Assembly (NCBI GenBank): GCA_902539825.1
Contig: CACBMH010000003.1
Coordinates: 2,592-66,591 of the forward strand
Length of the DNA stretch: 64,000 nucleotides
Direction: 5' to 3'
Origin: an uncultured Alphaproteobacteria bacterium
GTDB lineage: Bacteria; Pseudomonadota; Alphaproteobacteria; HIMB59; GCA-002718135
This document shows, one piece after another, positions 26,045-42,829 of this stretch (the stretch's first letter is position 1; each line of letters starts with the position of its first letter). The translations under genes were made by a program, and so were the position numbers. The notes under the pieces were generated by a model. The model was not told the DNA's origin, did no database searches, and saw only the letters and a program-made list of their open reading frames with translations.

Positions 26045-27100
26045 TTAAATTTGTTGTAATTTTTTACTTTCAATAGATTTATACATAGCTTCTAATATTT
26101 TTACTGTTTTTAAAGCAAGTGTCCCATCTGAATGATTTTTTACATCTTTATTAAGACATAAATCAACAAAAGTATTCAATGCTTCTTTAGTTCCATAACT
26201 AAATGTACCATCACCCTCCTCTATTTCATAATTTATATTATCTCCGTTATTCAGACGCACAAATAACCGTTCTCTTTTTACTTCCATATCTAAATATAAA
26301 ACACCAAGTGTGCCATGAACTGTAATATAAAAAGTACCTCCAAAATCTTTTGGTACAAATGCACTTCCGGAAAAAGAACCAGTTGCACCATTTGAAAATT
26401 TCATAGAAACTGCATTGGTATAATCAACATTTGTTGGTGAAGGCACAGATAGACAGAATACTTGATCTGGTTCAAGATGAGTAATCTTTAAAACACCTGC
26501 AAACATGTGTGACAATTGCCCCCAACCATATCCTCCTCCTTTATTTGGATCTGACCATGTAGAAGCATGGGGTTGGAATGTATGATTATTAGACTCACTC
26601 AATGGTATCCCTTGAAATAAATCTGTCAAAGATGATGAAAAAGCTGCATCAACATGTTTTATTTCACCTATTTTTTTATTTATTATAATTTCCTCAGCCT
26701 TAGACATAAAATTTTTAAAATTAAAACCATTTGGGATTAAAATATGTTTATTCTTTTTTTTTGCTAATTGGAGAAGTGTTTCAGCTTCTCTAGAAACTGT
26801 AGTCATAGGTTTCTCAATCATTACATGACAATTTTTTTCAAGCGCTGCTTTTGCATTCTCATAATGTGCATGATGCGGTGAAGAAATTACTACTCCATCT
26901 AAATATGATAAATTTAACATTTCTTTAAAATCAGTAGATGCATATTTAAAATTAAATTTATTCTTTACAAAAGTTAATTGGTCTTCTTCAAGCTTACATA
27001 CACTTGTTAATTCAACTTCATCTCTTTCTGCTAAATGCGGGATATGATTTTCTGTTGCCCACCAACCTGCTCCTATGACTCCAATTTTTACTTTATTCAT
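26045..27100 (-). CDS. Gfo/Idh/MocA-family NAD(P) oxidoreductase (candidate sugar 1-dehydrogenase)
   Basis: It has an N-terminal Rossmann fold (KIGVIGAGWW) and an EKP motif (MIEKPM). It lies directly downstream of the mutarotase gene. Confidence 0.8.
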   Translation of the reverse strand: MNKVKIGVIGAGWWATENHIPHLAERDEVELTSVCKLEEDQLTFVKNKFNFKYASTDFKEMLNLSYLDGVVISSPHHAHYENAKAALEKNCHVMIEKPMTTVSREAETLLQLAKKKNKHILIPNGFNFKNFMSKAEEIIINKKIGEIKHVDAAFSSSLTDLFQGIPLSESNNHTFQPHASTWSDPNKGGGYGWGQLSHMFAGVLKITHLEPDQVFCLSVPSPTNVDYTNAVSMKFSNGATGSFSGSAFVPKDFGGTFYITVHGTLGVLYLDMEVKRERLFVRLNNGDNINYEIEEGDGTFSYGTKEALNTFVDLCLNKDVKNHSDGTLALKTVKILEAMYKSIESKKLQQI

Positions 27101-27109
27101 TATTTGTTT

Positions 27110-27421
27110 TTAATCTAAATGCATTTGTAATGGCAACAAGTATGGAAAATTTGTTTTCGGATCAATATCTACTTTCATTATGGGCTCCATATATTTAGAC
27201 CATTTTTTATTAATTTCGCTTTTAGATATAAAGTTAATGGATTTTTTAAGATCATCAGTTTCAAAATATCCAAATAATTTTAATCCATATCTAAAAATAT
27301 TATAATTTCGTAATCCAGCTTCTTTAAGCATTTGAACCATTTCTGGCCAAATTTCATCATGTCTCTTTTTATATTCTTCCTCATATCCTGGTCGGATTTC
27401 AAGAATCCATGCATAATTCAT
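27110..27421 (-). CDS. rhaM: L-rhamnose mutarotase family protein
   Basis: The 103-aa protein has ...YKKRHDEIWPEM...NYNIF, typical of RhaM. I moved the start to the ATG at 27421, which is preceded by AAGAGG. Confidence 0.8.
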   Translation of the reverse strand: MNYAWILEIRPGYEEEYKKRHDEIWPEMVQMLKEAGLRNYNIFRYGLKLFGYFETDDLKKSINFISKSEINKKWSKYMEPIMKVDIDPKTNFPYLLPLQMHLD

Positions 27422-27498
27422 AATACCTCTTTTCAAATAAATTATATGTATTAATTTTATAAACTTATAGATAAAATTAAATTCTATAAAAAATATAA

Positions 27499-28407
27499 AT
27501 GAAAAAAATAGCTATTGTTGATTCACATCATCATCTATGGGACCTTGGTTCTAAAGAAACACATTATCCTTGGTTAAGTGGTAATGAGGATGAAGCTTTT
27601 TATGGAAGTTTTAAAAGTATTAAAAAGAGTTATTTATTAGATGATTATTTAAATGATGCAAAAAATCAAAATCTCGTGAAATCAATACATGTTCAGGCTG
27701 AACATGATGCAATGAACCCGATAGAAGAAACAAAATGGTTACAAAATATTTCAGATAATAATAATTTAAAAATCCCAAATGGGATTGTTGCATTTGCTGA
27801 TTTTTCTGAAGAAAAAGTCAGTGAAGTTCTTGATCAACACCTTGAATATAAAAATGTACGAGGAATTAGACAAATTTTGTCATTTGATAAAGATAAACCG
27901 CAATATTCTCATGCTAAAAAAGATTATTTAAAAGATGAGTTATGGCAAGATAACTTTAGACATTTGACCAATAGAAAATTATCTTTTGATATACAAATAT
28001 ATCCTCATCAGTTTGATGATGCTTGTAAATTAGCAAAACGTTACCCAAATGTACAATTTATCTTAAACCATACTGGTGAACCTTGTTTCCAAACAGAAGA
28101 ATATAAAAAATATTGGATGAGAAAGATGCAATCTTTAGCCGAACATGAAAATTTTGTTTGTAAAATATCAGGGTTGGGGATGTTTAATCCTAGTTGGACA
28201 ATTATTTCTACTGAATATTTTATTCTTAATACAATTGAAATTTTTGGTATTGATAGGTGTATGTTTGGATCAAATTTTCCTGTAGATAAAATTTTTAATA
28301 CTTTTGATAATTATTGGAGTTCATACTTTAATATTGTAAAAAATTTTTCACAAAATGAACATGATAAAATTTTTTTAAAAAATGCAGAGAAGTTTTATAG
28401 AATTTAA
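27499..28407 (+). CDS. Amidohydrolase_2-family metal hydrolase (sugar-lactonase-like)
   Basis: The N-terminal DSHHHLW and the HTGEP and GSNFPVD motifs resemble L-fucono/rhamnono-lactonase-type amidohydrolases. Confidence 0.7.
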   Translation: MKKIAIVDSHHHLWDLGSKETHYPWLSGNEDEAFYGSFKSIKKSYLLDDYLNDAKNQNLVKSIHVQAEHDAMNPIEETKWLQNISDNNNLKIPNGIVAFADFSEEKVSEVLDQHLEYKNVRGIRQILSFDKDKPQYSHAKKDYLKDELWQDNFRHLTNRKLSFDIQIYPHQFDDACKLAKRYPNVQFILNHTGEPCFQTEEYKKYWMRKMQSLAEHENFVCKISGLGMFNPSWTIISTEYFILNTIEIFGIDRCMFGSNFPVDKIFNTFDNYWSSYFNIVKNFSQNEHDKIFLKNAEKFYRI

Positions 28408-29384
28408 TGAGAAATAAAAAAAGTATAGCTATTCTTTTAGGTGATCCATCTGGAATCGGTCCTGAATTAATTTCTAAAATTCTATCTCATAATATTTTAA
28501 AAAAAATAAATATTGTAATTATTGGAGAAAAATCTGTATTTGATGGACATTTAACAAAACAAAAAAATAAAAAAAATATTAAGTTTATTAATAATTTTGA
28601 TCAAATAGAATTTAAAAGTACTAGTAAGATTTTCTTTGATATTACTAAAAAAAAAGTAAGATATCCAATTGGAAAAGCAAATATAAAATCAGGAATTTCT
28701 GTTTTAAATTCTATCGATATAGCGGTTGATTTATATAATAAGAAAAAAATAGATGGAATTAATTTTGCTCCGTTTAATAAAACAAGTTTAGATCTTGCCG
28801 GTATGAAATTTAAGGATGAACTCCATTATTTTAAAAATAAATTTAAAATAAAAAGCTACGTTTGTGAACTTAATGTATTAAATAATTTTTGGACTGCTAG
28901 AGTAACTTCACATATTCCCCTTAAAGATGTTGCAAAAAATATCAATATTAAAAATATTCTTGAACCAATTATGTTAGTTAATAAGTATTTAAAAAAAAAT
29001 GGATTTAAAAATCCAAAAGTAGGTGTTCAAGCTTTAAATCCTCACGCTGAGTTTGGAAATGAAGAGAAAAAAATAATAATTCCTGCAATAAACAAAGCAA
29101 GAAAAATGAAAATCAAAGTTTTTGGCCCGTTACCATGTGATACATCATTTATTAAAGCTTATAAAAATAAAGAGTATAATTGTCTTGTCGGAATGTATCA
29201 TGACGCCATACAATCAGGTCTTAAATCGTTTGGATTTGAAAAAGGTGTTACTGTTCAAGGTGGTCTGCCAATACCCATAACTACTCCTGCTCATGGAACA
29301 GCTTTTGATATTGTGGGTAAAAATAAAGCTAATGTAAGTCCGATGCTAGAATCTTTAAAGTTATTACTTAAACTCTTATCTTAA
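28407..29384 (+). CDS. PdxA-family NAD-dependent hydroxy-acid dehydrogenase/decarboxylase (paralog, not clearly pdxA)
   Basis: It has GDPSGIGPE, NPHAEFG and PAHGTAFDIVGKNKAN motifs and sits in a catabolic context. Confidence 0.75.
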   Translation: MRNKKSIAILLGDPSGIGPELISKILSHNILKKINIVIIGEKSVFDGHLTKQKNKKNIKFINNFDQIEFKSTSKIFFDITKKKVRYPIGKANIKSGISVLNSIDIAVDLYNKKKIDGINFAPFNKTSLDLAGMKFKDELHYFKNKFKIKSYVCELNVLNNFWTARVTSHIPLKDVAKNINIKNILEPIMLVNKYLKKNGFKNPKVGVQALNPHAEFGNEEKKIIIPAINKARKMKIKVFGPLPCDTSFIKAYKNKEYNCLVGMYHDAIQSGLKSFGFEKGVTVQGGLPIPITTPAHGTAFDIVGKNKANVSPMLESLKLLLKLLS

Positions 29385-29433
29385 TATTAAAAAATTCTCT
29401 TAAATTGATTTAAATTAGTATAATAATTATTTT

Positions 29434-30618
29434 GTGAGTAAAATTGTAAGTGTTAAAGCAAAGGTCTATAAATGGACAGGGCCCGTTCAAAAAATTCACG
29501 AAAATTTTTGCACAAATGCTGCAGATATTGTGAATCAAGAAAATATTTCAAATGATAGATGGACAACATATAAATTTCATAGCTGGTTAGTTGTTGAGAT
29601 AGAAACAAGTGATGGTTTGGTAGGTTTAGGTAATGCAGCATTATCCCCAGAACCATGTAAATCAGTTGTAGATACTTACTTAGCTCCAGCCATTATTGGT
29701 GAAAGTATATGGGATTATGAGCATATATGGCAAAAGATGTATCGCCAAACACTTGCTTGGGGGAGAAAAGGTGTAGGTATGACAGCTATTAGTGCTGTTG
29801 ATATTGCAATATGGGATGCACTAGGAAAATCTGCTAAACAACCCGTATTCAAATTATTAGGTGGAAAAACTAAATCAAAACTCCCCTGTTATGCAAGTAA
29901 GCTTTATAGTCAACCTCTTGATAGTCTTGCAAAAGAAGCTAAGGATTATGTTGATCAAGGTTTTAAAGCAATGAAATTAAGACTTGGTTGGGGTCCCACT
30001 GATGGTGCTGAAGGTATGCATAAAAATATTGAGTTAATCAAAACAGTGCGATCAGTTGTTGGTGATAATGTTGATCTTATGGCAGATGTATATATGGGAT
30101 GGACATTTGAATATGCAAAAAGAATGATGCGATTAATTGATAATGAAAATCTTCGTTGGTTAGAAGAACCAGTTATTGCTGATGATATTGATGGTTATGC
30201 AGATCTAAAAGCCTCATGTAGAACTCCTATATCTGGTGGTGAACATGAATATACACTTTTTGGTTTTAGACAATTACTAGAAAAAAAAGCAATTGATGTT
30301 GTACAATTTGATACGAATAGAGTTGGTGGTATAACACAGGCACATAAAATTTCTGCTTTAGCTGAAGCATTTCAAATACCAGTTATTCCTCACGCAGGAC
30401 AAGTTCATAATTTTCATATTTCTATGAGTTCAGTAAACGCTCCAATAGTTGAGTATTTTCCTTTTTGGCCTGTAGAAATTGGCAATGAATTATTTTGGTA
30501 TATTTTTGATGGCGAACCTCAAGCAAAAAATGGTTTTATCGAATTAGAAGAAAATAAACATGGATTAGGTATTAAGTTATCAAATAAATATTTAGATAAA
30601 TTTGAAATTATTGAGTAG
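29434..30618 (+). CDS. enolase-superfamily acid-sugar dehydratase, L-rhamnonate dehydratase-like
   Basis: It has a GTG start. The segments GWGPTDGAEG, LMADVYMGW, WLEEP and ISGGEHE align by eye with E. coli RhamD (YfaW). Confidence 0.75.
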   Translation: MSKIVSVKAKVYKWTGPVQKIHENFCTNAADIVNQENISNDRWTTYKFHSWLVVEIETSDGLVGLGNAALSPEPCKSVVDTYLAPAIIGESIWDYEHIWQKMYRQTLAWGRKGVGMTAISAVDIAIWDALGKSAKQPVFKLLGGKTKSKLPCYASKLYSQPLDSLAKEAKDYVDQGFKAMKLRLGWGPTDGAEGMHKNIELIKTVRSVVGDNVDLMADVYMGWTFEYAKRMMRLIDNENLRWLEEPVIADDIDGYADLKASCRTPISGGEHEYTLFGFRQLLEKKAIDVVQFDTNRVGGITQAHKISALAEAFQIPVIPHAGQVHNFHISMSSVNAPIVEYFPFWPVEIGNELFWYIFDGEPQAKNGFIELEENKHGLGIKLSNKYLDKFEIIE

Positions 30619-31657
30619 AATTATTTGCAATTTCATCGTTATATGCAAAAACTGCCGGACTACCACCAGTGAACATAAAAATAACGTTTTCACCTTTCTT
30701 AATGATTCCTTTTTCAACATAATCAATTAAAGCTGCAAAACCTTTTGATGTATAAACTGGATCTAAAATAATTCCCTCTTTATTAGCTAAAAGCTTTGTT
30801 GCTTTTATTCCATCTTCTGTAGTCGCACCATATTTTTCACCTACATAATTATTGTCATGATTAATCATTTTATGTGAAAACTCTAAATTAATATCAAGCA
30901 TCTTTGCTGCATCATTACATATTCTCGCTATATCTTTTTTAATATCCATTTCCCAATAAACAGGAGAAATACCTTGAATACGAGTTGGCCAATTTAATAT
31001 CTTAGCTCCTAATTCACAACCTGCTTGTGTCATATTAGCAGCAGTAACAAATAGATGATCTGCCATAAAATTTTGCTCTTTCATTTGTAAATCAATTTCA
31101 GCCATAGCATTTGCGTAACTTATACCAGCAAGAGTAGTATCCTCTTTTCCAAATCCTCCATAAATTAATAGAGGTTTTCGACCTTCTTTCATTAACTCAT
31201 TATATTTTATATCTAAATGCTTTGGTATTTCTTCTAAATTCTCACCATCAATAACATCAACATTTGCTCCCAGAATATTATATAATAAAAAATTACCTTG
31301 CATTAAGTTTCCTTTTATTCCGTGCATTAATACTAAATAACTATCTAAATTTAGTTTATTTGCAGCAGCTACAGCTTGACGGCAAAAATTAGACTGAGAT
31401 GCAGCCCCAGTTAAAATACAGTCATAATCTCCAGATAATGTTTTAGCCATTATAAACTCTAAATGTCTTGTTTTGTTTCCCCCAAAAGCTAATGCAGTGC
31501 AGTCATCTCGTTTGATATAAAGATTTATACCCAACTCTTTAGAAATATTAGGTGCAAATTCAAGTACAGTAGGTAATTGAGCTAGATTAACTCTAGGAAT
31601 TTTATTTATTCTTGAAGTTAATTCTTCAGCAGACAAAGGATTAAAATTGTTATTCAT
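30608..31657 (-). CDS. PLP-dependent ACC deaminase / D-cysteine desulfhydrase-family enzyme
   Basis: YIKRDDCTALAFGGNKTRHLEF and SQSNFCRQ parallel DcyD/AcdS motifs. Length is 349 aa. Confidence 0.8.
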   Translation of the reverse strand: MNNNFNPLSAEELTSRINKIPRVNLAQLPTVLEFAPNISKELGINLYIKRDDCTALAFGGNKTRHLEFIMAKTLSGDYDCILTGAASQSNFCRQAVAAANKLNLDSYLVLMHGIKGNLMQGNFLLYNILGANVDVIDGENLEEIPKHLDIKYNELMKEGRKPLLIYGGFGKEDTTLAGISYANAMAEIDLQMKEQNFMADHLFVTAANMTQAGCELGAKILNWPTRIQGISPVYWEMDIKKDIARICNDAAKMLDINLEFSHKMINHDNNYVGEKYGATTEDGIKATKLLANKEGIILDPVYTSKGFAALIDYVEKGIIKKGENVIFMFTGGSPAVFAYNDEIANNSTQ

Positions 31658-31676: not shown

Positions 31677-33410
31677 TTAATGACTATGTCTTTTTACTTC
31701 AGCTCCTCTTTTTCCAATAAGAAAATCTAGATCTGCTCCTTTGTCAGCTTGCATAACATGCTCTACGTACATTTTTTGATAACCACCTGTGATTTCTGGA
31801 ACAACAGGTGAATAATTTTCTAGACGATTTTTTATTATTTCTTCATTGACTTTTAAGTTCATTATACCTTGATCAACATCTACTTCTATTTCATCACCAT
31901 TTTGAACTGCTGCTAAAGGACCTTTAACTGCAGCTTCTGGAGATGTATGAAGTATTACCGTACCGTATGCTGTACCACTCATTCTAGCGTCAGATATTCT
32001 AATCATATCTCTCACACCTTTTTTAAGAACTTTTTGTGGAAGACGCATATTACCTACTTCAGCCATACCAGGGTAACCCTTTGGCCCACAATTTTTTAAA
32101 ACTAATATTGAATTTTCATCAACGTCTAAATTGGGATCATCAATCTTTTCATGAAATTCTTCTACACTTTCAAAAACTACCGCTTTTCCAGTATGTTTCA
32201 TTAATTCTGGTGATGCAGCTGATGGTTTAATAATTGCACCATTTGGAGCAATATTACCCCTAAGAATTTTAATTCCTCCATTTTTTGTTAATGGATTTTC
32301 AAATTCTTTGATAACATCATTGTTCCAACATTTAGCATTTATATTATTCTCAGATATAGTTTTTCCATTAACAGTCATTTCATTTTCTTCTAATAGATTT
32401 TTTTCCATTAATCTTTTTATAACTACAGGAACACCACCTGCATAATAAAAATCTTCCATTAAGTATTTTCCAGAAGGTTGTAGATTTACTAATGTTGGAA
32501 TACCATCTCCACATTTATTCCAATCTTCTAAATCTAAATCTATTTCCATTCGACCTGCGATTGCAGCTAGATGGATAACTGCATTTGTAGATCCCCCTAT
32601 TGCTCCATTGACCTTGATTGCATTTTCAAATGATTTTTTTGTAACAATTTTTGACATAGTTATATCTTCCTTAACCATTTCAACAATTCTTTTTCCAGAC
32701 ATATGAGCTAAAGCATATCTTCTTGAGTCAACTGCAGGTATCGCAGCATTTCCAGGTAGTGACATCCCTAATGCTTCCACCATTGATCCCATTGTTGATG
32801 CGGTACCCATTGTCATACAATTACCTTTTGATCTACTCATTGAAATTTCTGCATTAATAAAATCTTCTTCTGTAATTACACCAGCGTTTAAATCTGCATC
32901 AAGTTTCCAAACACCAGTGCCAGAACCTATTGTTTCACCTTGATGGTGTCCATTAAGCATTGGGCCACCTGAAACACCTATTGTAGGAAGATCTACACTT
33001 GCAGCTCCCATCATTAATGAAGGTGTTGTTTTATCACATCCCATTAATAATACGACTCCGTCTATAGGATTACCCCTTATTGCCTCTTCAACATCCATAC
33101 TTGCTAAATTTCTAAACAACATAGCTGTAGGTCTTAAATTGGATTCACTTGCTGAAAAAACAGGAAATTCAAGAGGAAAACCACCAGCTTCATAAACACC
33201 TTTTTTAACAGACTCTGCTATCTCTCTGAAATGACCATTACAAGGAGTTAATTCAGACCATGTATTACAAATTCCAATTACAGGACGGCCATCAAACAAA
33301 TGATTTGGATGACCTTGATTTCTCATCCAGCCTCTATGAATAAATGTATCTCTTCGATGTGATTTAGAATTATACCAATTAGAAGATCTAAATTTATTTT
33401 TTTTATTCAT
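31677..33410 (-). CDS. IlvD/Edd-family dehydratase (aldonate dehydratase-like)
   Basis: It has CNGH, GCDKTTPS and GTASTM motifs. It is 577 aa, with an N-terminus like pentonate dehydratases. Confidence 0.85.
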   Translation of the reverse strand: MNKKNKFRSSNWYNSKSHRRDTFIHRGWMRNQGHPNHLFDGRPVIGICNTWSELTPCNGHFREIAESVKKGVYEAGGFPLEFPVFSASESNLRPTAMLFRNLASMDVEEAIRGNPIDGVVLLMGCDKTTPSLMMGAASVDLPTIGVSGGPMLNGHHQGETIGSGTGVWKLDADLNAGVITEEDFINAEISMSRSKGNCMTMGTASTMGSMVEALGMSLPGNAAIPAVDSRRYALAHMSGKRIVEMVKEDITMSKIVTKKSFENAIKVNGAIGGSTNAVIHLAAIAGRMEIDLDLEDWNKCGDGIPTLVNLQPSGKYLMEDFYYAGGVPVVIKRLMEKNLLEENEMTVNGKTISENNINAKCWNNDVIKEFENPLTKNGGIKILRGNIAPNGAIIKPSAASPELMKHTGKAVVFESVEEFHEKIDDPNLDVDENSILVLKNCGPKGYPGMAEVGNMRLPQKVLKKGVRDMIRISDARMSGTAYGTVILHTSPEAAVKGPLAAVQNGDEIEVDVDQGIMNLKVNEEIIKNRLENYSPVVPEITGGYQKMYVEHVMQADKGADLDFLIGKRGAEVKRHSH

Positions 33411-33442: not shown

Positions 33443-34318
33443 TCAAATTTTAAATTTATTATCTTCAAGTCCAGACACATTAACATTTAATGCAAATAGA
33501 CTACCATCATATTGATTTTTACCTGAATTTGTAGCACTTGTAATAAATAAAGTTTTAAGATCACTTCCTCCAAATACACAATTTGTTACGTTTTCAACAG
33601 GTAGCTCATAGATTTTATCTATTCTTCCTTTAGGATCAATTCTCACTACACATGAACCACCCCAACGACAATTCCAAATAAAGCCATCGCCATCAATAGT
33701 TGATCCATCTGGAGCACCTCTATCAAAATTGAAAAAATTTTTTTTGTCTGACAAACTACCTTCATCTAGGTTAAAATTGTATTCTAGTAATGATCCCTCA
33801 GTTGTATCGGCAAAATAAAATTTCGTATTATCTGGACTCCAAACAAATGTGTTAGGTATACCAAGATTTGTTTCAACAATATTTACCTTATTATCAGATA
33901 GACAATATAAACTTCCAGATTTAGCATTTAAAGATTTTGGACTTCCATCTTGATTAAAATTATTTTGCATAGTGCCAAACCAGAGCCTGCCCCTAGCATC
34001 AGATGCACCATCATTAGATCTATTTGTTAAAATATCATCTTCAACATTAATTATTCTTTCGTATTTTTTAGATTGAAAGTTAAATTTATTTACTCCATTA
34101 TTTGAGACTAAAGCAATTTCATTTTTTGAGATTATTGATGTCGCTGTTACAAAATCAGGTAAATCAAAAGTTTCTAATTTTTCGTTATCTAAATCAATTC
34201 TGAATAAAACTGATTTTGGTTTAATATCTACCCAAAGTAAACTTTGATCAATTGAAGACCACGTGATACCTTCTCCCAAACTATTTTTTACATCTTTATA
34301 TAATTCGACCTTACTCAT
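33443..34318 (-). CDS. SMP-30/gluconolactonase/LRE-family lactonase
   Basis: It has GEGITWS, NDGASDARGRLWFGTM and PDGSTIDGDGFIW beta-propeller motifs and is 291 aa. Confidence 0.85.
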   Translation of the reverse strand: MSKVELYKDVKNSLGEGITWSSIDQSLLWVDIKPKSVLFRIDLDNEKLETFDLPDFVTATSIISKNEIALVSNNGVNKFNFQSKKYERIINVEDDILTNRSNDGASDARGRLWFGTMQNNFNQDGSPKSLNAKSGSLYCLSDNKVNIVETNLGIPNTFVWSPDNTKFYFADTTEGSLLEYNFNLDEGSLSDKKNFFNFDRGAPDGSTIDGDGFIWNCRWGGSCVVRIDPKGRIDKIYELPVENVTNCVFGGSDLKTLFITSATNSGKNQYDGSLFALNVNVSGLEDNKFKI

Positions 34319-34362: not shown

Positions 34363-35367
34363 TTAGAGATAATGTGCTTTATCTTTAATACGAGCCATTA
34401 CTTCTTTGGTCGCTTCTTCAGATCCATCATGGAACGTACCCATTAATTTATCTAAGAAACTAGTATTTCCACCTGAATAATTGCATTCAAAATATTTATG
34501 ATGAATATAATGCATATAATCACCTGTTGGAATTGATACACCATTTTTGAAAGTCATTTTTTCATATCCTGTATGTCCAGGTGTAGGTGCTAAACCAGCA
34601 TGAAATACATGATACATCGCAACAAGAGGATGTGAAGGGATTATCCAATGAACTAAGATTCCTGAAAAATAGAGTATATGCTCTATTGGATGCATAGACA
34701 TACCTGACCAAGCACCTGTATTCGTATTACGGTGGTGTACTTTATGTGCAATTTTATAAAGTGGTGCCCAGTGTAGTAATCTATGAGTTAAGTAAAAATG
34801 TGCGTCTCTTATAAACGGAACAAGAAAGAACATAAAACAACAATATATTGGATACGCCTCCCAGCTTACGTAAGGGATTATTTGATTTGCAAATGCCCAA
34901 AATGTAATTACTTCATAAGCTGTCCACAATGGAATAGCACTACAAAAAGTATAGAATAGGTTATCTTTAGTCTGATCATTAAATAGAAATGTTGAGTTAT
35001 TTTTCTCCAAAGGTCGCGGATTATATTTAAATGAAGTTCCTTGTCTCTTTAATCTTAAATGAAAGAAGCCTGTCCAGAGCAAAATAATAACTGCATTTCT
35101 AAAAAATATATATGATATCCATCCTATTTCAAAAGTTTTCATTGTCTCTAAAGAAGGAGTCAAAAAAAGATATGTAGCAACTGTTATTGCTGCAAAGACA
35201 AAAGTCCATGGGAAAAAAATTCCAGGAAATTTAAAAAAATACTTTAAAAATTTTATTGGGTTAAAAAATATATCTTTAGGTGGGTTAATACTTATTGTAC
35301 CAAATGGTTTCCAATGACCTCTTTTATCTCTTGTACCAAAATCACTGTCATTTAGTTGATTACTCAT
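34363..35367 (-). CDS. fatty-acid-hydroxylase / sterol-desaturase-superfamily membrane di-iron oxygenase
   Basis: It has His boxes HRLLH, HKVHH, HPIEH and HYIHH, and several TM helices. Confidence 0.8.
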   Translation of the reverse strand: MSNQLNDSDFGTRDKRGHWKPFGTISINPPKDIFFNPIKFLKYFFKFPGIFFPWTFVFAAITVATYLFLTPSLETMKTFEIGWISYIFFRNAVIILLWTGFFHLRLKRQGTSFKYNPRPLEKNNSTFLFNDQTKDNLFYTFCSAIPLWTAYEVITFWAFANQIIPYVSWEAYPIYCCFMFFLVPFIRDAHFYLTHRLLHWAPLYKIAHKVHHRNTNTGAWSGMSMHPIEHILYFSGILVHWIIPSHPLVAMYHVFHAGLAPTPGHTGYEKMTFKNGVSIPTGDYMHYIHHKYFECNYSGGNTSFLDKLMGTFHDGSEEATKEVMARIKDKAHYL

Positions 35368-35405: not shown

Positions 35406-36422
35406 CTAAATTGTCGTATCTGGAACCTTCACATCAATATAATAATTTTTATCTTTATATTGCTTAAATATTGCTGGGATTATTGATCTATAAGCAGAAA
35501 TTATTCCGTTGTGAGGTTCTGGCATTTGATTTTTAACTATTTTGTGAAATTTTTTTAAATTATGGCATGGAATTTTTGGGAAAATATGGTGCTCAATATG
35601 ATACTCCATGTTTGAATATAAAAAACTAAAAAAGGGATTCATAATAACAGTTCTTGTACTTTTTCTATGATCTTTAATATTATCGGCTAGTCCTGCGTGT
35701 TGAGTCATGGCACAAATCATTAATACAGTGTTGCCATAAAATGGAGGAAAAATTATCATAATAATTGGCAACCATGATTGAAGCAAAACTGAGGATAAAA
35801 TTACAAGTAGCCAAAAACTTAAATATAATCTTGAACTATTAATTATTTTTTTTATCTCCTTTTCAGGTACTGTAACTTTTACAACAGGAGTAATTATCCC
35901 AAATGAATGTTTAATAATTTCAAAATGCGTAAAATGTCTTATTTTTTGAATATTAATTATTGGACCAAGGGGTAAAAAATTTAAAAGAAATCTGATAGGT
36001 TCTGTTGGTTTCGGACTATTATTTTCGTAATCATACACCTCCTCATGTGTAAATATGGTGTAAGTATGGTGATGAAAATGACTCCACTTCCATCTAACTG
36101 CCTCAAAACCACCGAGTAAAGAAGTTATATGATAAAGAAATTTATTTAACGCTCTTGTTTTAAAATATGTTTCGTGATTTGTTTCATGTTGAATGCTTAT
36201 GATTTTACAATAGAAAATATTTCCATAAAGTAAAAGAGCAGGTATTGACCATAAACTACCCCAACTTATAATACACAGATATCCACTTAATATTAAAGCA
36301 ACAATAAATACGGATATATCTAATAAACCTTTTATATCGGATCTCGTAGAAAGTTCCTTTAAAGTTTTCTTATCTATTTTTGGTTTATACCAAGTTTTTA
36401 AATCAACTTCGCCCGCAAACAT
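35406..36422 (-). CDS. fatty-acid-desaturase-family membrane di-iron protein (paralog B)
   Basis: It has His boxes HETNH, SHFHHH and HIEHH with TM helices. It is clearly paralogous to the 38879..39865 gene. Confidence 0.8.
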   Translation of the reverse strand: MFAGEVDLKTWYKPKIDKKTLKELSTRSDIKGLLDISVFIVALILSGYLCIISWGSLWSIPALLLYGNIFYCKIISIQHETNHETYFKTRALNKFLYHITSLLGGFEAVRWKWSHFHHHTYTIFTHEEVYDYENNSPKPTEPIRFLLNFLPLGPIINIQKIRHFTHFEIIKHSFGIITPVVKVTVPEKEIKKIINSSRLYLSFWLLVILSSVLLQSWLPIIMIIFPPFYGNTVLMICAMTQHAGLADNIKDHRKSTRTVIMNPFFSFLYSNMEYHIEHHIFPKIPCHNLKKFHKIVKNQMPEPHNGIISAYRSIIPAIFKQYKDKNYYIDVKVPDTTI

Positions 36423-36425
36423 TAA

Positions 36426-37253
36426 TCAAAATTTTTCTGAAAGCTTTAAAAATTTTTCAAATTCACCTTCATCAATGTTAACAGTGATTTTAGGATCATT
36501 AAATTTTTTGTTTACCGTATCATCGTGAAACTCTTTGAATGCATTTACTCTTTCAGCTTGTAGTTTTGAAAATTCTTTTTTAAAATCTCTATAAATTCTC
36601 GCATGTCTTGGAATTTTTCCTTGAGTATATCCGAGTACATCATTAGCAAATAAATATTGCCCATCACATCCAGAACCACTTCCCATTGAGAGAGTCATGA
36701 TATCAACTTTTTTTGTAATAACTTCTGCAACTTTTGGTGGAACTACTTCGAGTTCAACTCCAATAGCACCCGCTTCTTGTAACTCAAGAGTATGTTCTAA
36801 TATTCTTATGGCTTTATCTGCTGTTTTACCTTGTGCAACAAATCCTCCAATCCAAGTAGCATTTCCTGGAACTAATCCAACATGACTATTAATTGGAACA
36901 TATTCATCTCTTAATGCTCTAATCCATTTGTAGCTCCAATTACCACCATAGATAACATCTGCACCAATGTCTAAATACTTGTGTGATAGTTTCATAGCTT
37001 CGTATTCAGAAGCTACTCTTACTGCTCCTCCAGATTGCATAAAGCAAGTTGGTGCAGCCTCACGAATTCGCTTAAGCTCATCAAAAGAATTGAAAATACC
37101 AAATTGTGGAGCATCATGAGAAGTACAAATCATGTCAATGCCTGCCTCTTCAGCTGCTGCAGCTTCATCAGCATTATGCACGAACATAACACTTAGTTGT
37201 CTTTTACCCTTGCATTGCAAATAATCATAAACTGTAAGTTTTTTTCTGCTCAT
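36426..37253 (-). CDS. PanB-like (ketopantoate hydroxymethyltransferase family, PEP/pyruvate-domain TIM barrel) enzyme
   Basis: VGLVPGNATWIGGF..QGKT....LE....LQEAGA..VELEVVP..VAE.IT and GSGSGCDGQ align by eye with E. coli PanB. It is embedded between oxygenase genes. Confidence 0.7.
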   Translation of the reverse strand: MSRKKLTVYDYLQCKGKRQLSVMFVHNADEAAAAEEAGIDMICTSHDAPQFGIFNSFDELKRIREAAPTCFMQSGGAVRVASEYEAMKLSHKYLDIGADVIYGGNWSYKWIRALRDEYVPINSHVGLVPGNATWIGGFVAQGKTADKAIRILEHTLELQEAGAIGVELEVVPPKVAEVITKKVDIMTLSMGSGSGCDGQYLFANDVLGYTQGKIPRHARIYRDFKKEFSKLQAERVNAFKEFHDDTVNKKFNDPKITVNIDEGEFEKFLKLSEKF

Positions 37254-37273: not shown

Positions 37274-37591
37274 TTAATCTATCTTAATGAAAATTTTGTC
37301 ATTATCAACTTTAACTGGATATGTTTTTAAATCCTCACACGCTGGTGGGCTTAAAGCTTCTCCGGATTTAATATTAAAAATTCCCTGGTGCATTGGACAT
37401 TCAATTTCATCATCCATAACCAAACCATCTTCAAGATGTACCGCCTCGTGTGTACAAATTCCATCAGTAGCATAAAAACCATCTGTTAGCTTATACACAC
37501 AAAAAGTTTTATCTTGATGATCAAATCTGATGAGATCCTCTTCTTCAATACTATCTGTAGCCCCTACTTCAATCCAATTTTCTTCAGACAT
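37274..37591 (-). CDS. Rieske-type [2Fe-2S] ferredoxin
   Basis: It has CTHEAVH and CPMHQG ligand motifs and is a 105-aa stand-alone protein. Confidence 0.9.
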   Translation of the reverse strand: MSEENWIEVGATDSIEEEDLIRFDHQDKTFCVYKLTDGFYATDGICTHEAVHLEDGLVMDDEIECPMHQGIFNIKSGEALSPPACEDLKTYPVKVDNDKIFIKID

Positions 37592-37643: not shown

Positions 37644-38873
37644 TTATTTTTGTATAAGTTTATTTAATTTTAGATTTTGATCTGAGAGAATTTGTTTATC
37701 TACAATGGTATCTTTCTCAGTTAATTTAGAAGTTATTCTAATATCACGGCCTACTTTTCCTATGATTCCAACACCACATGCTCCTCTTATTTTATTATTT
37801 TTTAGGAAAAAATAAATAACACCATTATTAATATCATTACCTCTTTCGATGATTTCATCATACTCATCACAAATACCAGTCAGTTGAAGATTCAAATTAA
37901 ATTGATCAGACCACATCCAAGGAATTGAAGTATATTCTGTTTTTACTCCAGCAATGTTTTTTCCAGCACATATTCCATGATTTTGTGCATGTTGATAAGA
38001 CTCGAGTCGCATATTTCTTTCATAGAATGGATGATAAAAATTAGATACGTCACCTGCTGCAAAAACATCTTTAATAGAAGTTTCACAAAATTGATTAGTT
38101 ACAATACCATTATCAAGCTTTAAATTTGTATTTTCAAATAACTTTACAGTCGGGGTTGAGCCTATACCTGCAATTATAAAATCTGTTTCTATTAAAGAAT
38201 TATCATTTAATAAAATTTCATAATCGCCATTTTTTTTAGTTATTTTTTCTATCTGCTTATTTAATATTATTTCATTTCCATGTTCTATATGAGTGTTTTG
38301 AACTAAATCAGCAATTTGTTTGGGTATAATTCTTCCCATAAGTTGATTGCCAATTTCAATAACAATTACTTTCTTTTGAAGCTGAGATAAAGATGAGGCA
38401 ATTTCTAAGCCAATGAAACCGCCACCAATAATTGTTATTTTATTTTTATTTGAAACTATTTCTTTAATTTTTTTGGCTTCTTCTAAATTTCTTAGATAAT
38501 AAATATCATTCTTTAAATTATTATCTAAACTAAGTTTTTTATTTTCAGAACCTGTTGAAATAAGCAAACTATCATAAGAGTAAACATTATCATTTTTTGC
38601 AAAAAGTTTTTTATTTTCAAAATCAACTTTATTAATTGATATATTTTCAAATTCTATATTTTCATTTTTTAGTACGTCGCTAGAATGAAAATAAAGATCT
38701 TCTTCTTTTTTTTTATCTAGCAAAAAATCTTTAGATAAAGGAGGTCTTTCGTATGGTAATAAATTTTCTTCACCTAAAATTTTAATATTTGATTTTGAAT
38801 CATTTTGTCTGATCTCTCTAGCAGCATATATTCCGGCTTGACCACCACCTAGAATTACAATGTTATTTTTCAC
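37644..38873 (-). CDS. FAD-dependent ferredoxin-NAD(P)+ reductase (pyridine nucleotide-disulfide oxidoreductase family)
   Basis: It has ILGGGQAG (FAD) and IIGGGFIGLE (NAD) dinucleotide folds and AAGDV. It is 409 aa, with the length and architecture of BphG/CamA-type reductases. Confidence 0.85.
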   Translation of the reverse strand: MKNNIVILGGGQAGIYAAREIRQNDSKSNIKILGEENLLPYERPPLSKDFLLDKKKEEDLYFHSSDVLKNENIEFENISINKVDFENKKLFAKNDNVYSYDSLLISTGSENKKLSLDNNLKNDIYYLRNLEEAKKIKEIVSNKNKITIIGGGFIGLEIASSLSQLQKKVIVIEIGNQLMGRIIPKQIADLVQNTHIEHGNEIILNKQIEKITKKNGDYEILLNDNSLIETDFIIAGIGSTPTVKLFENTNLKLDNGIVTNQFCETSIKDVFAAGDVSNFYHPFYERNMRLESYQHAQNHGICAGKNIAGVKTEYTSIPWMWSDQFNLNLQLTGICDEYDEIIERGNDINNGVIYFFLKNNKIRGACGVGIIGKVGRDIRITSKLTEKDTIVDKQILSDQNLKLNKLIQK

Positions 38874-38878
38874 TCAGT

Positions 38879-39865
38879 CTAAGCGTTGCTTGGAACAGAT
38901 AATGGAATTTGATAGTCAGGATTTTTTGCTTGTTTTATGAGTGCTGGAATAATTTCTTTATAAGCCCCAAGAAGACCTTTTCTGGCAGGTGGTAATTGAT
39001 CTTTAATCATAGCATGCAGCTTAGGTAAATTATGTGAGGGAACTTGAGGGAACATATGGTGCTCAACATGATATTCCATATGCCAATATAAAAAACTTAA
39101 AACTGGATTTAAATATACTGTTCTAGTTGTATACCTATGGTCTCTTTTATCTTCTCTAAGTCCTGCGTGTTGAGTAAGACCCATAAGCATAACAAGGGTC
39201 TTTCCATAAAAATTAGGCAATAAAACATATAGAACTGGAAGCCAACTTTGAAAGTAAACTGAAGAAGCTATACTAATTATCCAAATAGAAAGATGACTCC
39301 ACGCAGATAATCTACATTTCCATCTTTCATTTTTTGGAATACAAACTTTCATTACATCAGTAGTTACACCAAATGCATGTTTTATAGTTTCCCATTGAAG
39401 AGAATTTTTAAAGAAAATAAAACCAGAGAATGGAATGTAATGAGAGAAAAACACAATCAAGTCAGTTGGTTTTTTTACATGTATTTCAAAATCTACAGGA
39501 TCATTAAATTGAGTATAAGTATGATGATGATAGTGAGAATATCTCCATCTGATAGGTTCAAAATTATCCATGAAACTAGCAATATAATAAAAGAAATCAT
39601 TCCAGAATTTAGATTTAAAAGCAGTTCTGTGACCAGTTTCATGCCATATAGCATCGCTGCATCCCCAAATATTTCCGTATATTATAAAAAATAATAATGA
39701 CCACCAAGTGCCCCAAGTGACATACGCAAGATATCCAAAGAGAAACAGAGATGAAAAATAAATAATCATATGCTTAAAACCCTGCCAATCAGATTTCTTG
39801 CATAACTGCTTGAATTCTTTTTTATCTATATTTGCTCGATACCATTTACCTAAATCAACATCCAT
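38879..39865 (-). CDS. fatty-acid-desaturase-family membrane di-iron protein (paralog A)
   Basis: It has His boxes HETGH, SHYHHH and HVEHH with TM helices. It is the first gene of the minus-strand operon. Confidence 0.8.
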   Translation of the reverse strand: MDVDLGKWYRANIDKKEFKQLCKKSDWQGFKHMIIYFSSLFLFGYLAYVTWGTWWSLLFFIIYGNIWGCSDAIWHETGHRTAFKSKFWNDFFYYIASFMDNFEPIRWRYSHYHHHTYTQFNDPVDFEIHVKKPTDLIVFFSHYIPFSGFIFFKNSLQWETIKHAFGVTTDVMKVCIPKNERWKCRLSAWSHLSIWIISIASSVYFQSWLPVLYVLLPNFYGKTLVMLMGLTQHAGLREDKRDHRYTTRTVYLNPVLSFLYWHMEYHVEHHMFPQVPSHNLPKLHAMIKDQLPPARKGLLGAYKEIIPALIKQAKNPDYQIPLSVPSNA

Positions 39866-40055
39866 AATGAAAAAATAGCACTTTTTGATAATCTTATAAA
39901 TATAAAAATTGCTTTAAATTGGCAAATAAGTGCGACTATTTTATCTATCAAAAGAAAGAGGGATTTAATTTGTAATAAGATCTTTAATACTTTAATTTAA
40001 TTGTATTATTGATTTATTTACTTATAAATTAATGCATAAATTATTTGGAGGAATT

Positions 40056-41036
40056 ATGAAAAAAATCTTTGCTGTCATTGCTTTATTTTTTGCTTTTGCA
40101 TCTACTTCAGCAGTAGCAAAAAATGATTACAGCTGTGATAAGAAATTTATATTTTTTCCAGGTGGTCCAGAAGGTGGTCCATTTGGAACTATCGTTTACA
40201 ATGGTGCAGTAGCTGCTGCTGAACACACTGGTTGTGAAGTAGATTACTACTGGTCACAGTGGAACTCAGAAATCATGATTAAACAATTTAAAGAAGCTGT
40301 TGCTTTACAGCCTGATGGAATTGCAATCTATGGTTTTCCAGGAGACGCTGCAATGAGACCTATCATTCAAGAAGCAAGAGAAATGGGTATAGTAATTACT
40401 ACTATGAATACACCTCTTCCTGATCTTGAATCAGAATATAAAACTGAAGGATTTGGTTATGCAGGTGCAGATCTATTTGATGCTGGATTCAATCTAGGTA
40501 AAAAAGCTGTTGAAGTTTGTGGTCTACAAGCTGGAGATAAAGCATTTATCTGGGGTCTTGCAAGTATGCCAAATAGAGGAGAAAGAACTAAAGGTGCAAT
40601 AGCTGGTGTTGAAGCAGCGGGTGTTGAGGTAGTTTATCAAGAAATTCCTGATAATGTAAACTCAGATGCATCTCAGGGAACTCCTATGTACGTTGCTACT
40701 TATAGTGCAAATCCTGATATCAAAATGGCTATTACAGATCATGGTGGATTAACTGCAAGTTTACCAACATATATGAAGGCTGCAGGTCATGGTACTGAAG
40801 AAGTATGTGGCGCTGGATTTGATTTATCAGCTCCAATTGTTGACGGAATTAATTCTGGATACATTGACGTTGTAATTGATCAACAACCATTTATCCAAGG
40901 ATATATGCCAATTGTTCAGTTATTCCTAAGTACAAAATATGGAATGGCTGGATTAGCAATGGATACTGGTGCTGCATTTGTTACAGCTGATAACGTTGAT
41001 GCTGTTGCTCCATTAGCAGCAGTACAAATCAGATAA
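40056..41036 (+). CDS. periplasmic sugar-type ABC substrate-binding protein (Peripla_BP_4-like)
   Basis: The start at 40056 is preceded by GGAGG. It has the signal peptide MKKIFAVIALFFAFASTSAVA. GC content is higher and codon use is biased relative to neighbours. Confidence 0.85.
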   Translation: MKKIFAVIALFFAFASTSAVAKNDYSCDKKFIFFPGGPEGGPFGTIVYNGAVAAAEHTGCEVDYYWSQWNSEIMIKQFKEAVALQPDGIAIYGFPGDAAMRPIIQEAREMGIVITTMNTPLPDLESEYKTEGFGYAGADLFDAGFNLGKKAVEVCGLQAGDKAFIWGLASMPNRGERTKGAIAGVEAAGVEVVYQEIPDNVNSDASQGTPMYVATYSANPDIKMAITDHGGLTASLPTYMKAAGHGTEEVCGAGFDLSAPIVDGINSGYIDVVIDQQPFIQGYMPIVQLFLSTKYGMAGLAMDTGAAFVTADNVDAVAPLAAVQIR

Positions 41037-41050
41037 ATTAAATATTATAG

Positions 41051-41083
41051 CCTGCCTTATTTAATAAGGCAGGTTTATTTTTT
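41051..41083 (+). terminator. intrinsic-terminator-like hairpin between the binding-protein and ATPase genes (intra-operon attenuator)
   Basis: CCTGCCTTAT-TTA-ATAAGGCAGG forms a 10-bp stem followed by TTTATTTTTT, and the ATPase ATG follows directly. Confidence 0.75.
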
Positions 41084-41851
41084 ATGGCTGAAGAACTCTT
41101 AAAATTACAAAATATTTACAAAAACTTTGGAAACGTAAAAGTTTTAAAAGATGTGAATATCAAAATAAATAAAGGTGAAGTGGTAGCTTTAATCGGTGAT
41201 AACGGAGCTGGAAAATCTACACTTATTAAAGTTATAACTGGAGTTCATAGCCCAAACTCGGGTAAAGTTTTTTTTAAAGAAGAAGAGGTACAAATTAAAT
41301 CAGTTGCTCAATCAAGAAAAATGGGGATTGAAGCAGTGTATCAAGAAAGAGCATTATGTGATCAGCAAGAATTATATAGAAATATCTTTGCAGGAAGAGA
41401 AATTACAAATTCATTTGGTTTTTTAGATATAAAAAAACAAAGAAAAGAAGCAGAAAAAATTTTACGGGACTATATAGGTTTTACTTCAAAAGCTATAACA
41501 GTTGATTCTCAAGTAATGGGTCTGTCTGGTGGAGAAAAACAAGGTGTAGCTTTCGGTAGATCATTATATTTTAATTCTGATTTAATCGTATTAGATGAAC
41601 CAACAATGGGATTATCGATACAAGAAACAGAAAAAGTTCTTAATTTTGTAAAAGGTTTAAAAAATGAAAACAAATCTGCAATATTTATCGATCATAATAT
41701 TATACACGTATATGGAGCTGCAGATAGATTTATTATTTTAGATAGAGGTGAGGTTGTTGGGGAGTTTAATAAAGAAGATATTTCAAGGGAAGAGCTTGTT
41801 CAAAAAATGATTCAACTTCATGAATCAGGAAAAATAAAAGTGGAAGATTAA
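41084..41851 (+). CDS. ABC transporter ATP-binding protein (single NBD)
   Basis: It has Walker A GDNGAGKST, signature LSGGEKQ and Walker B LIVLDEPT. Confidence 0.9.
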   Translation: MAEELLKLQNIYKNFGNVKVLKDVNIKINKGEVVALIGDNGAGKSTLIKVITGVHSPNSGKVFFKEEEVQIKSVAQSRKMGIEAVYQERALCDQQELYRNIFAGREITNSFGFLDIKKQRKEAEKILRDYIGFTSKAITVDSQVMGLSGGEKQGVAFGRSLYFNSDLIVLDEPTMGLSIQETEKVLNFVKGLKNENKSAIFIDHNIIHVYGAADRFIILDRGEVVGEFNKEDISREELVQKMIQLHESGKIKVED

Positions 41852-42829
41852 ATGAATAATTTATTAAATAGTTATTTTGTAAAAACTCACAAACTTGAAA
41901 TTAGTATTACTATAATTGCTGTAGTACTATTCCTAATTTATTTTCTTGGCGCACCACATGTATTTACAAGATTTCCTATTTATAGAGCTTTTATGCAATC
42001 AATGCCTTTTTTTGGAATTATTGCTATATCAGCAACATTTGTTGTTACACTTGGTGAAATTGATTTATCATTTCCATCTATAGTTGGAATTACATCTCTC
42101 ATATTTGGAATTATAATGACATCGACTGATGGTAACTTTTTTATAGCATTTATTTTGGCAACTTCACTTGGAATGTTTGCTGGATTAGTAAATGGATTAC
42201 TTGTTACTAAAATTGGCATACCTTCAATAGTTGCCACTATAGGTACATTATTTTTTTGGCGTGGATTAGTTAATGTAATTTCCCAAGGTAGTGGTATTGC
42301 AATCGTCGATGTAGCAGATGGAACATGGCATCATATGATATTTGTTGAAAAATTATTTGGAAAAATTCCAATGCAATTTATTTGGTTCATTGTATTAACT
42401 GGATTGATGCAATGGGTTTATCGATACCATAAATTTGGAAATCATATCCACTTTGTAGGTGATAACAAAGCAAGCGCTCAAATGATGGGAATTAATGTTG
42501 ATAATGTAAAAATTATTGCTTTTGTTCAACTAGGATTTTTCTCTGCATTAGCAGGAATTTTTACAATGTATGAAATGTTATATTTCTGGCCTACACAAGG
42601 TGAAGGTTTGATGTTGACAACACTAGCAGCCGTCTTTGTTGGTGGCACTTCAGTCTTCGGTGGTAAGGGTACTATTTTTGGAACTTTTATTGGAGTATTA
42701 ATTATTGGATCATTAGAATCAGGAATAGTTGCTTTAGGCTTATCTGGTTTTTATGTAAAATTTATTAACGGACTCATGATTACAGTAGCCGTAACAGTCT
42801 ACGCCCTAATACAAAGAAGAAAAAATTAA
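41852..42829 (+). CDS. ABC transporter permease (RbsC/BPD_transp_2 type)
   Basis: It has about 9 TM helices and is 325 aa. Its start abuts the ATPase stop. Confidence 0.85.
   Translation: MNNLLNSYFVKTHKLEISITIIAVVLFLIYFLGAPHVFTRFPIYRAFMQSMPFFGIIAISATFVVTLGEIDLSFPSIVGITSLIFGIIMTSTDGNFFIAFILATSLGMFAGLVNGLLVTKIGIPSIVATIGTLFFWRGLVNVISQGSGIAIVDVADGTWHHMIFVEKLFGKIPMQFIWFIVLTGLMQWVYRYHKFGNHIHFVGDNKASAQMMGINVDNVKIIAFVQLGFFSALAGIFTMYEMLYFWPTQGEGLMLTTLAAVFVGGTSVFGGKGTIFGTFIGVLIIGSLESGIVALGLSGFYVKFINGLMITVAVTVYALIQRRKN

Follow-up and report, generated by a model that had tools for sequence, protein, structure and literature searches.

Ketopantoate hydroxymethyltransferase (KPHMT), the product of panB (EC 2.1.2.11; crystal structures 1M3U, 1OY0, 3VAV, 3EZ4 and 1O66), depends on an essential divalent metal and is recognized by four conserved motifs (LVGDS, HLGLTPQS, IPVIGIGAG and DGQILVMHD) and by the strictly conserved pocket residues D45/46, D84, K112, E114, H136 and E181 (PMC13488298). 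Here, we describe a PanB-like protein encoded in a stretch of 64,000 nucleotides from an uncultured member of the Alphaproteobacteria (assembly GCA_902539825.1, contig CACBMH010000003.1, positions 2,592 to 66,591), hereafter called the window. It shares with PanB the TIM-barrel fold, a similar length, H136, E181, the GxGxG...DGQ stretch and the Asp that comes next, but it is without LVGDS (D45/S46) and D84, has Tyr in place of K112, has E114 deleted and reads PRH where PanB reads PKF. Its gene also differs from panB in setting: its neighbors are those of a catabolic oxygenase operon and not pantothenate genes, and it coexists with a canonical PanB. Judging from the comparisons presented below, the protein appears to represent a sister family of PanB that is widespread and misannotated, has rebuilt its active site and keeps consistently to catabolic partners.

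The closest described counterpart of that partnership is the MocD/MocE/MocF system of rhizobial rhizopine (3-O-methyl-scyllo-inosamine) catabolism, together with the locus SMb20818-20820 of S. meliloti 1021, which is annotated as mocDEF. As in the window, these systems combine a membrane di-iron enzyme of the FA_desaturase family, a Rieske protein of the MocE family (in the window, one right at the threshold of that family) and an FAD reductase, with LacI and a sugar-type ABC importer alongside, and in rhizobial megaplasmids the PanB-like gene directly follows. The window differs in that a single ferredoxin and a single reductase go with three oxygenases from two families, and in having a downstream pathway of the lactonase/dehydratase (aldose-acid) type instead of the inositol type. 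To our knowledge, the rhizopine model, in which MocDEF takes the methyl group off the ether of 3-O-methyl-scyllo-inosamine, is the only precedent for this type of oxygenase working with a Rieske ferredoxin.

For the trapping of formaldehyde-level carbon on a pterin carrier, which we propose below, the systems to compare are the GcvT-type tetrahydrofolate (THF)-binding domains of demethylating oxidases and the formaldehyde-activating enzyme Fae, which is linked to tetrahydromethanopterin (H4MPT). These are functional analogs only, with no kinship in sequence or fold, and in the window the putative trap is a separate protein of PanB fold. Fae has been described together with the lack of a THF counterpart (PMC7073904).

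A Sister Clade of PanB with an Altered Pocket

The window is AT-rich (~30% GC) and its nearest relatives in public data are Pelagibacteraceae. A preliminary description made from the sequence alone had pointed to a 275-aa open reading frame with three PanB-like stretches (VGLVPG...IGGF..QGKT, ELEVVP and GSGSGCDGQ), and all three are present in the translation. The distances it gave are also correct, the gene lying 20 nt 3' of the Rieske gene and 3 nt 5' of an FA_desaturase gene (table 1). The product is a genuine PanB-fold protein. It is matched by PF02548 (Pantoate_transf) with 129.8 bits (E 1.6e-37; gathering cut-off 28.7), and its AlphaFold2 model, built from an alignment of 31 relatives (predicted local distance difference test, pLDDT, 93.5), retrieved PanB crystal structures as all of its top 28 Foldseek matches (template modeling, TM, score 0.61-0.71; the best at ~0.7, with 24-27% identity), followed by phosphoenolpyruvate mutase and methylisocitrate lyase as more distant matches. 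The similarity along most of Escherichia coli PanB that had been noted by eye holds for the motifs but not for the N-terminal third, since the Pfam match spans only profile positions 91-256 (residues 82-251 of the protein) and the region corresponding to LVGDS is not recognizable as PanB.

The departure from canonical PanB is considerable. Both NCBIfam panB models, which are of the equivalog/subfamily level, score the protein at about half of their cut-offs (TIGR00222, 103.3 bits vs. 207.55; NF001452, 117.9 bits vs. 272). Of five testable marks of PanB membership, the Pfam match and fold speak for it and the other four speak against it. We compared residues in an alignment of 71 sequences that included 13 canonical PanBs, using the numbering of E. 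coli PanB after verifying it against the 1m3u sequence. D45, S46, D84, K112, E114, H136 and E181 are kept in 13 of the 13 canonical PanBs, but the PanB-like protein and its clade keep two of the six strict residues, H136 (H124 here) and E181 (E169 here). Nothing is conserved in them at the positions of D45/S46 and D84, K112 has become mostly Tyr in the clade, an adjoining deletion of 2-3 residues takes out E114, and the PKF of PanB has become PRH. The Asp of CDGQ (D197) and the following Asp (D205) are also retained, and four residues are newly conserved within the clade (Y102, E167, R216 and H217).

We take D45, D84, K112 and E114 to be the ligands of Mg2+ and of the carboxylate of the 2-oxo acid, as they reportedly are in the 1M3U structure. 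The PanB-like protein thus appears to have lost the half of PanB that binds Mg2+ and the 2-oxo acid, and the surviving part of the pocket (H136/E181 and GxG...DGQ...D) would be the side that faces the transferred hydroxymethyl carbon. For E181, this orientation fits simulations in which the residue contacts hydroxyl groups of the bound inhibitor, pantoate or pantothenate (PMC13488298).

In a maximum-likelihood tree, a branch (Shimodaira-Hasegawa-like approximate likelihood ratio test, SH-aLRT, 87) sets the 13 canonical PanBs apart, and the branch leading to the sister group has a support of 99 and a length of 0.6. A core clade of 49 rows, with support 100, holds both the window protein and a paralog found on another contig (C12) of the same genome. 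The phylogeny and active-site comparison that had been suggested as a check thus place the protein outside the canonical PanBs, in what appears to be a well-separated sister clade. Two intermediate sequences, L067 and P0213, have GDS and K112 and are placed near the canonical PanBs. The first of them (G024:C1:960992-961831) keeps GDS and K112, has Cys for D84 and Gln for E114, scores 202 bits on the clade profile and has no oxygenase nearby; it may represent a separate, earlier split from PanB.

The genome to which the window belongs is available as an assembly of 962 kb, estimated as 61% complete. PF02548 has three matches in it, namely a canonical panB on contig C7 (257.5 bits), located beside dxs, the window gene and the divergent paralog on C12. 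The gene panC is found on contig C1. Hence, both the absence of pantothenate genes near the window gene and the existence of a second, canonical panB, proposed earlier as points to be checked, were borne out. Because the NCBIfam cut-offs are not reached, four of the six catalytic residues are gone, the protein belongs to a separate clade and canonical panB and panC lie on other contigs, the PanB-like protein is not the housekeeping PanB, as had been suspected.

A profile of the clade was run over 401 Pseudomonadota genomes and gave bimodal scores, with 26 places at 276-359 bits, the ordinary PanB of almost every genome at 175 bits or less and the one intermediate at 202 bits. All 26 high-scoring places are in Alphaproteobacteria, many of them in large genomes of rhizobial type, and single genomes have as many as three copies. 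A search of 1.84 billion representative sequences returned 1,367 proteins at E <=1e-10, canonical PanBs being among the weaker ones, and the full-length relatives of the PanB-like protein share 31-49% identity with it. The clade is common on plasmids of Rhizobium, Sinorhizobium and Mesorhizobium, where its members are labeled PanB. Public records name such proteins 3-methyl-2-oxobutanoate hydroxymethyltransferase, some with a pantothenate Gene Ontology term, and thousands of clade proteins are so affected. The risk of a false panB annotation raised in the preliminary description is therefore real: such names may lead to false calls of pantothenate prototrophy and hide a catabolic function.

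Two unusual architectures were seen among the relatives. One protein of 542 aa (P0122, at L011:1748-3376) is made up of a PanB-like domain repeated in tandem (residues 3-262 and 281-538). Another, P0273 (654 aa), known from a single metagenome contig, apparently joins a ferredoxin reductase (2-322) to a partial PanB-like domain (418-585), which may be real or an artifact of a frameshift or gene call.

Association with Membrane Oxygenases and MocE-Type Ferredoxins

We scanned ~20 kb around 25 members of the clade from our genome sample with the window's own proteins; these 25 loci stem from about eight genera and are not 25 independent events. In 22 of them, a membrane di-iron oxygenase (FA_desaturase/MocD-like or FA_hydroxylase) adjoins the PanB-like gene or lies within ~8 kb of it. 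A MocE-type Rieske ferredoxin is usual in those 22 loci, none being seen in L058 and L059. At the related loci an FAD reductase is often present and LacI with a CUT2 sugar ABC importer usually so, and importers homologous to that of the window flank most of them. The trio of PanB-like gene, oxygenase and ferredoxin was found again on metagenome contigs that are unrelated (L006, L084 and that of P0134), while the contigs of P0131, P0122 and P0138 are too short to show a context. No oxygenase is visible in three of the 25 loci: L060, which lies behind a TRAP transporter, L067, which holds the intermediate sequence mentioned above, and L068, which is cut by a contig end.

The genes of R. leguminosarum UPM791 are annotated, in this order, as LacI, fatty acid desaturase, MocE family 2Fe-2S ferredoxin, FAD-dependent oxidoreductase and "3-methyl-2-oxobutanoate hydroxymethyltransferase", and in S. 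meliloti 1021 the neighbors SMb20817-20820 are LacI, mocD, mocE and mocF (PMC11387232). Genes downstream in rhizobial loci encode GFO/IDH/MocA dehydrogenases and TIM barrels of the xylose-isomerase-like/AP_endonuc_2 type.

The association was also examined in the reverse direction, starting from TIGR02377 (MocE) in one genome for each of 150 alphaproteobacterial families plus the window genome, 151 in total. Eight genomes have a MocE-type Rieske protein beside a membrane oxygenase of these families, and seven of the eight have a PanB-like gene, within ~5 kb in four (G469, G533, G024 and the window genome) and elsewhere in three (26 kb away in G036; at contig ends in G008 and G489). Weaker Rieske matches came with neither such an oxygenase nor a PanB-like gene. 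In the eighth genome, G457 (95% complete), two tandem MocD-like oxygenases accompany a MocE ferredoxin, and the clade profile at E <=1e-20 finds neither a PanB-like protein nor a canonical PanB. The PanB-like protein is tightly tied, in both directions, to oxygenase/ferredoxin modules.

In the window genome we found six such membrane di-iron oxygenases, three in the window operon, one on C10 and two on C12, together with two PanB-like genes and with a single MocE-type ferredoxin and a single reductase, which both belong to the window operon. With a single ferredoxin and a single reductase in the assembly, the window operon would feed electrons to all six oxygenases. The PanB-like protein is a frequent accessory of MocDEF-type systems and not a 1:1 subunit of each oxygenase. 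A complex prediction for oxygenase A and the PanB-like protein gave a score of 0.00; it was run without controls and we count it neither way.

By contrast with the oxygenase and ferredoxin, which occur in nearly all of the related loci, homologs of the window lactonase, IlvD-type dehydratase, MR_MLE dehydratase and pyridoxal phosphate (PLP) enzyme were found in none of the 25. These genes are therefore a sugar-acid branch specific to the window, outside the conserved module.

Some clade members are natural fusions. In L084:8001-10064 (P0271; also P0272), an acidic linker connects a PanB-like domain with a domain of 345 aa. Such fusions form two clusters, of 687 and 648 aa, and the operon of the L084 fusion has the order FA_desaturase-Rieske-fusion-GFO-GFO. 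For the 345-aa partner, Pfam gave no match and BLAST showed no similarity to DUF4432, but it is predicted to be folded (pLDDT 89.5) as a galactose mutarotase, with TM scores of 0.5-0.57 to aldose 1-epimerases. In its free form the domain closes the operon in L054 (5731-6777), and it constitutes a large family of "hypothetical proteins" in Rhodobacterales. Mutarotase-type genes of other families also lie near the module (RhaM in the window, DUF4432 in L045). Such partners point to aldose substrates and hemiacetal chemistry, and would suit both an enzyme that traps one-carbon (C1) units and one that acts on the sugar skeleton.

A Possible Role in One-Carbon Transfer to Tetrahydrofolate

The function we favor, to which we give a probability of about 0.4, is that the PanB-like enzyme passes the formaldehyde or hemiacetal carbon of O-demethylated imported sugars to THF, as 5,10-methylene-THF. 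Hydroxylation of a methyl ether yields a formaldehyde hemiacetal, and SAR11 bacteria oxidize methyl groups via folate for energy. In the SAR11-like genome studied here, the CUT2 ABC importer would take up an O-methylated sugar, electrons from NAD(P)H would travel by way of the FAD reductase and then the MocE-type Rieske ferredoxin to the three membrane di-iron oxygenases, and these would convert the methyl ether into the hemiacetal. The PanB-like enzyme would then join the C1 unit of the hemiacetal, or nascent formaldehyde, to THF. The resulting 5,10-methylene-THF would be oxidized for energy via FolD, which is present in this genome, and later steps, while the demethylated sugar would enter the lactonase/dehydratase branch.

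The O-demethylation step is proposed by analogy with the genetic model of rhizopine MocDEF, and THF is put forward as the acceptor because the PanB-specific motifs and the residues facing the C1 unit are retained. Two oxygenase families and very different downstream pathways (lactonase/dehydratase here, inositol-type in rhizobia) fit a role on a by-product common to all of them, and a generic accessory role is likewise suggested by the two families of partner and by the presence of two PanB-like genes for six oxygenases in the window genome. An enzyme of this kind would meet a need. Formaldehyde's spontaneous condensation with THF requires 100 uM formaldehyde or more and is far too slow in vivo, no dedicated enzyme for this condensation is known and PanB has been named as a candidate promiscuous catalyst (He et al., PMC7073904). 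PanB enzymes accept free formaldehyde, according to the account of Sugantino 2003 given in PMC7770189. Our literature search turned up no paper that deals with what the PanB-like partner does.

Transfer of a C1 unit to THF beside methyl-hydroxylating di-iron oxygenases had been one of two functions suggested for the gene beforehand. The general idea survives as the best fit to the two-way gene association. The form in which it had been put, a retro-aldol removal of a C-hydroxymethyl branch, does not, since the site that would stabilize the enolate is lost; the C1 unit more likely comes from an O-CH2OH hemiacetal or from free formaldehyde. More tentatively, the clade as a whole might be a dedicated THF-dependent formaldehyde-activating enzyme or hemiacetal C1-transferase, a new enzyme class for THF by which the oxidative O-demethylation of methylated sugars and cyclitols would feed the folate C1 pool, both in rhizobia and, for energy, in SAR11. 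If so, it would offer a natural formaldehyde-THF catalyst of interest for C1 metabolism and synthetic methylotrophy, methylated carbohydrates would join the known C1 sources of SAR11 through a module that strips methyl ethers and keeps their carbon, and the little-studied rhizobial MocDEF would be linked to an abundant ocean lineage.

Several observations weigh against transfer to THF. Formate-THF ligase was not found in the window genome assembly, which is 61% complete, and no folate-metabolism gene was recognized among the recurring annotated neighbors in the fetched loci. The retention of a folate-binding half is something we infer, because the folate site of PanB is without structural definition, and Y102, E167, H217 and R216 could instead create a metal site, or a site of another kind, for a substrate derived from sugar. 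Rhizobial genomes carry up to three paralogs, each beside its own oxygenase, which hints at roles specific to substrate or partner rather than at a generic C1 trap. The tie to oxygenases also has gaps on both sides: some PanB-like genes have none nearby (L060, with its TRAP transporter, and the P0147 and P0128 contigs), some oxygenase modules of the reverse test have no adjacent PanB-like gene, and in G457 the module is present and no PanB-like gene was found. Finally, the demethylase activity of MocDEF is reportedly a genetic model and not a biochemical result.

Alternative Functions

The paralogs paired each with its own oxygenase, and the replacement of the lost residues by others conserved only in the clade, would also suit an enzyme that acts without folate on the sugar or cyclitol skeleton, as an isomerase, an epimerase, an enolizing enzyme or a lyase on a keto or hemiacetal intermediate formed by the oxygenase or by dehydrogenases encoded nearby, by means of the retained Glu/His acid-base pair and a rebuilt pocket. 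The natural fusion to a galactose-mutarotase-fold domain within an operon of FA_desaturase, Rieske and GFO genes, and the recurrence of mutarotase-type genes near the module, point the same way. We nevertheless find a skeleton-acting enzyme rather unlikely, for two unrelated oxygenase families and very different downstream pathways are better explained by a common by-product, two PanB-like copies serve six oxygenases in the SAR11-like genome, and dedicated TIM-barrel isomerases are already encoded in the loci. Moreover, the retained GxGxG...DGQ...D belongs to the four conserved KPHMT motifs (PMC13488298).

An improbable variant of the favored function is that the protein handles formaldehyde without folate, by speeding hemiacetal breakdown or by condensing formaldehyde with another acceptor as a local detoxification. 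Its tie to putatively formaldehyde-producing oxygenases is the same as that invoked for transfer to THF. Hemiacetal breakdown is a spontaneous and fast process, however, so that an enzyme for it would be of little obvious value. As reported in PMC7770189 from the work it cites, M. tuberculosis PanB carries out THF-independent hydroxymethyl transfer with free formaldehyde, but in this known reaction the acceptor has to be the enolate of a keto acid bound to Mg2+, and the PanB-like protein no longer has the site for it.

Strict C-demethylation, in which a C-linked hydroxymethyl branch of a 2-oxo compound would be removed by retro-aldol transfer to THF, has the attraction of being the literal reverse of the PanB reaction. 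Relatives of the FA_hydroxylase family include sterol C-methyl oxidases, and a nearby module of the window is of the 6-deoxyhexose (C-methyl sugar) type, with RhaM and a rhamnonate-dehydratase-like gene. Retro-aldol cleavage needs stabilization of the enolate, however, and the whole clade is without the D45/D84/E114 metal site and without K112; in addition, a primary alcohol on a hexose would be at C6, which is not alpha to a carbonyl. We hold this function to be quite improbable.

The other function suggested beforehand, a class-II (metal-dependent) aldolase for 2-keto-3-deoxy acids made by the neighboring dehydratases, has in its favor the superfamily shared with HpcH/HpaI aldolases and an operon without any aldolase gene. 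It is nevertheless very improbable, since the metal and carboxylate ligands are gone, the positions of the PanB metal ligands having no acidic residue that is conserved, the Pfam scan gave no match of PF03328 (HpcH/HpaI) on the protein, and genes of the IlvD, MR_MLE and SMP30 types are absent from all 25 related loci. Candidate aldolases and hydrolases lie elsewhere in the genome, namely its only HpcH (C37), a second DHDPS (C2) and an FAH protein (C17). A functional, merely divergent KPHMT, for which the Pfam score above the gathering cut-off and the public annotation speak, is the least probable of all in view of the missed NCBIfam cut-offs, the loss of four of six invariant catalytic residues, the separate clade, the canonical copy in the genome and the catabolic context.

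Genes of the Window Operon and Neighboring Units

The features of the window operon and of the divergent importer are given in table 1. Gaps between genes of the oxygenase operon are of 3-52 nt, and oxygenase B starts 3 nt past the stop codon of the PanB-like gene. The operon appears to fit the MocDEF type, with the Rieske protein at the threshold of its family: TIGR02377 (MocE_fam_FeS) scores it at 136.3 bits by hmmscan and at 135.5 in a six-frame genome search, against a cut-off of 136.15.

Table 1. Location of the PanB-like Gene, the Other Genes of Its Operon and the Divergent Importer in the Window
Feature	Position	Strand	Product	Evidence
PanB-like protein	36426..37253	minus	275 aa, ATG start	PF02548; TIGR00222, NF001452; tree; fold
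MocE-type Rieske [2Fe-2S] ferredoxin	37274..37591	minus	105 aa	Pfam Rieske 60.9 bits
FAD/NAD(P)H ferredoxin reductase, MocF-like	37644..38873	minus	409 aa	Pyr_redox_2 206.9 bits + Reductase_C
Membrane di-iron oxygenase A, FA_desaturase/MocD-like	38879..39865	minus	328 aa	PF00487 113.6 bits
Membrane di-iron oxygenase B, FA_desaturase family	35406..36422	minus	338 aa	PF00487 115.8 bits
Membrane di-iron oxygenase C, FA_hydroxylase family	34363..35367	minus	334 aa	PF04116 71.3 bits
SMP-30 lactonase	33443-34318	minus		Family match
IlvD/arabinonate-type dehydratase	31677-33410	minus		Family match
DcyD/CuyA-like PLP enzyme	30608-31657	minus		Family match
CUT2-type sugar ABC importer, divergent	40032..42829	plus	Peripla_BP_4 binding protein, ATPase, BPD_transp_2 permease	Pfam

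The best NCBIfam matches of the reductase are ferredoxin-NAD+ reductases of the HcaD/AndAa type, all below their cut-offs. Oxygenase A has His-box residues that are invariant in its alignment, and its rhizobial orthologs adjoin PanB-like genes. Oxygenase B has a weak match to GntB, which hydroxylates a small polar substrate, and orthologs of oxygenase C (200-375 bits) lie beside PanB-like genes in L055, L057, L058, L059 and L070.

The operon ends with the PLP enzyme, whose best match is the D-cysteate sulfo-lyase CuyA (268 bits; cut-off 450), followed by the D-cysteine desulfhydrase/1-aminocyclopropane-1-carboxylate deaminase family. The operon adjoins a divergent unit (window positions 26045-30618) that encodes a GFO/IDH/MocA dehydrogenase, RhaM (L-rhamnose mutarotase), an Amidohydro_2 protein, a PdxA-family protein and an L-rhamnonate-dehydratase-like protein of the enolase superfamily. 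This unit is a 6-deoxyhexose-type module and may receive the demethylated sugar.

On contig C12 (L004:9053-16948), the second PanB-like paralog of the genome, of 274 aa, lies 3' of a PhyH-family dioxygenase. Divergent from it are genes for another MocD-like oxygenase, for a GFO/IDH/MocA dehydrogenase and for a sulfatase, and a sugar-type ABC importer is encoded downstream. Together they may handle a sugar that is sulfated, methylated or both.

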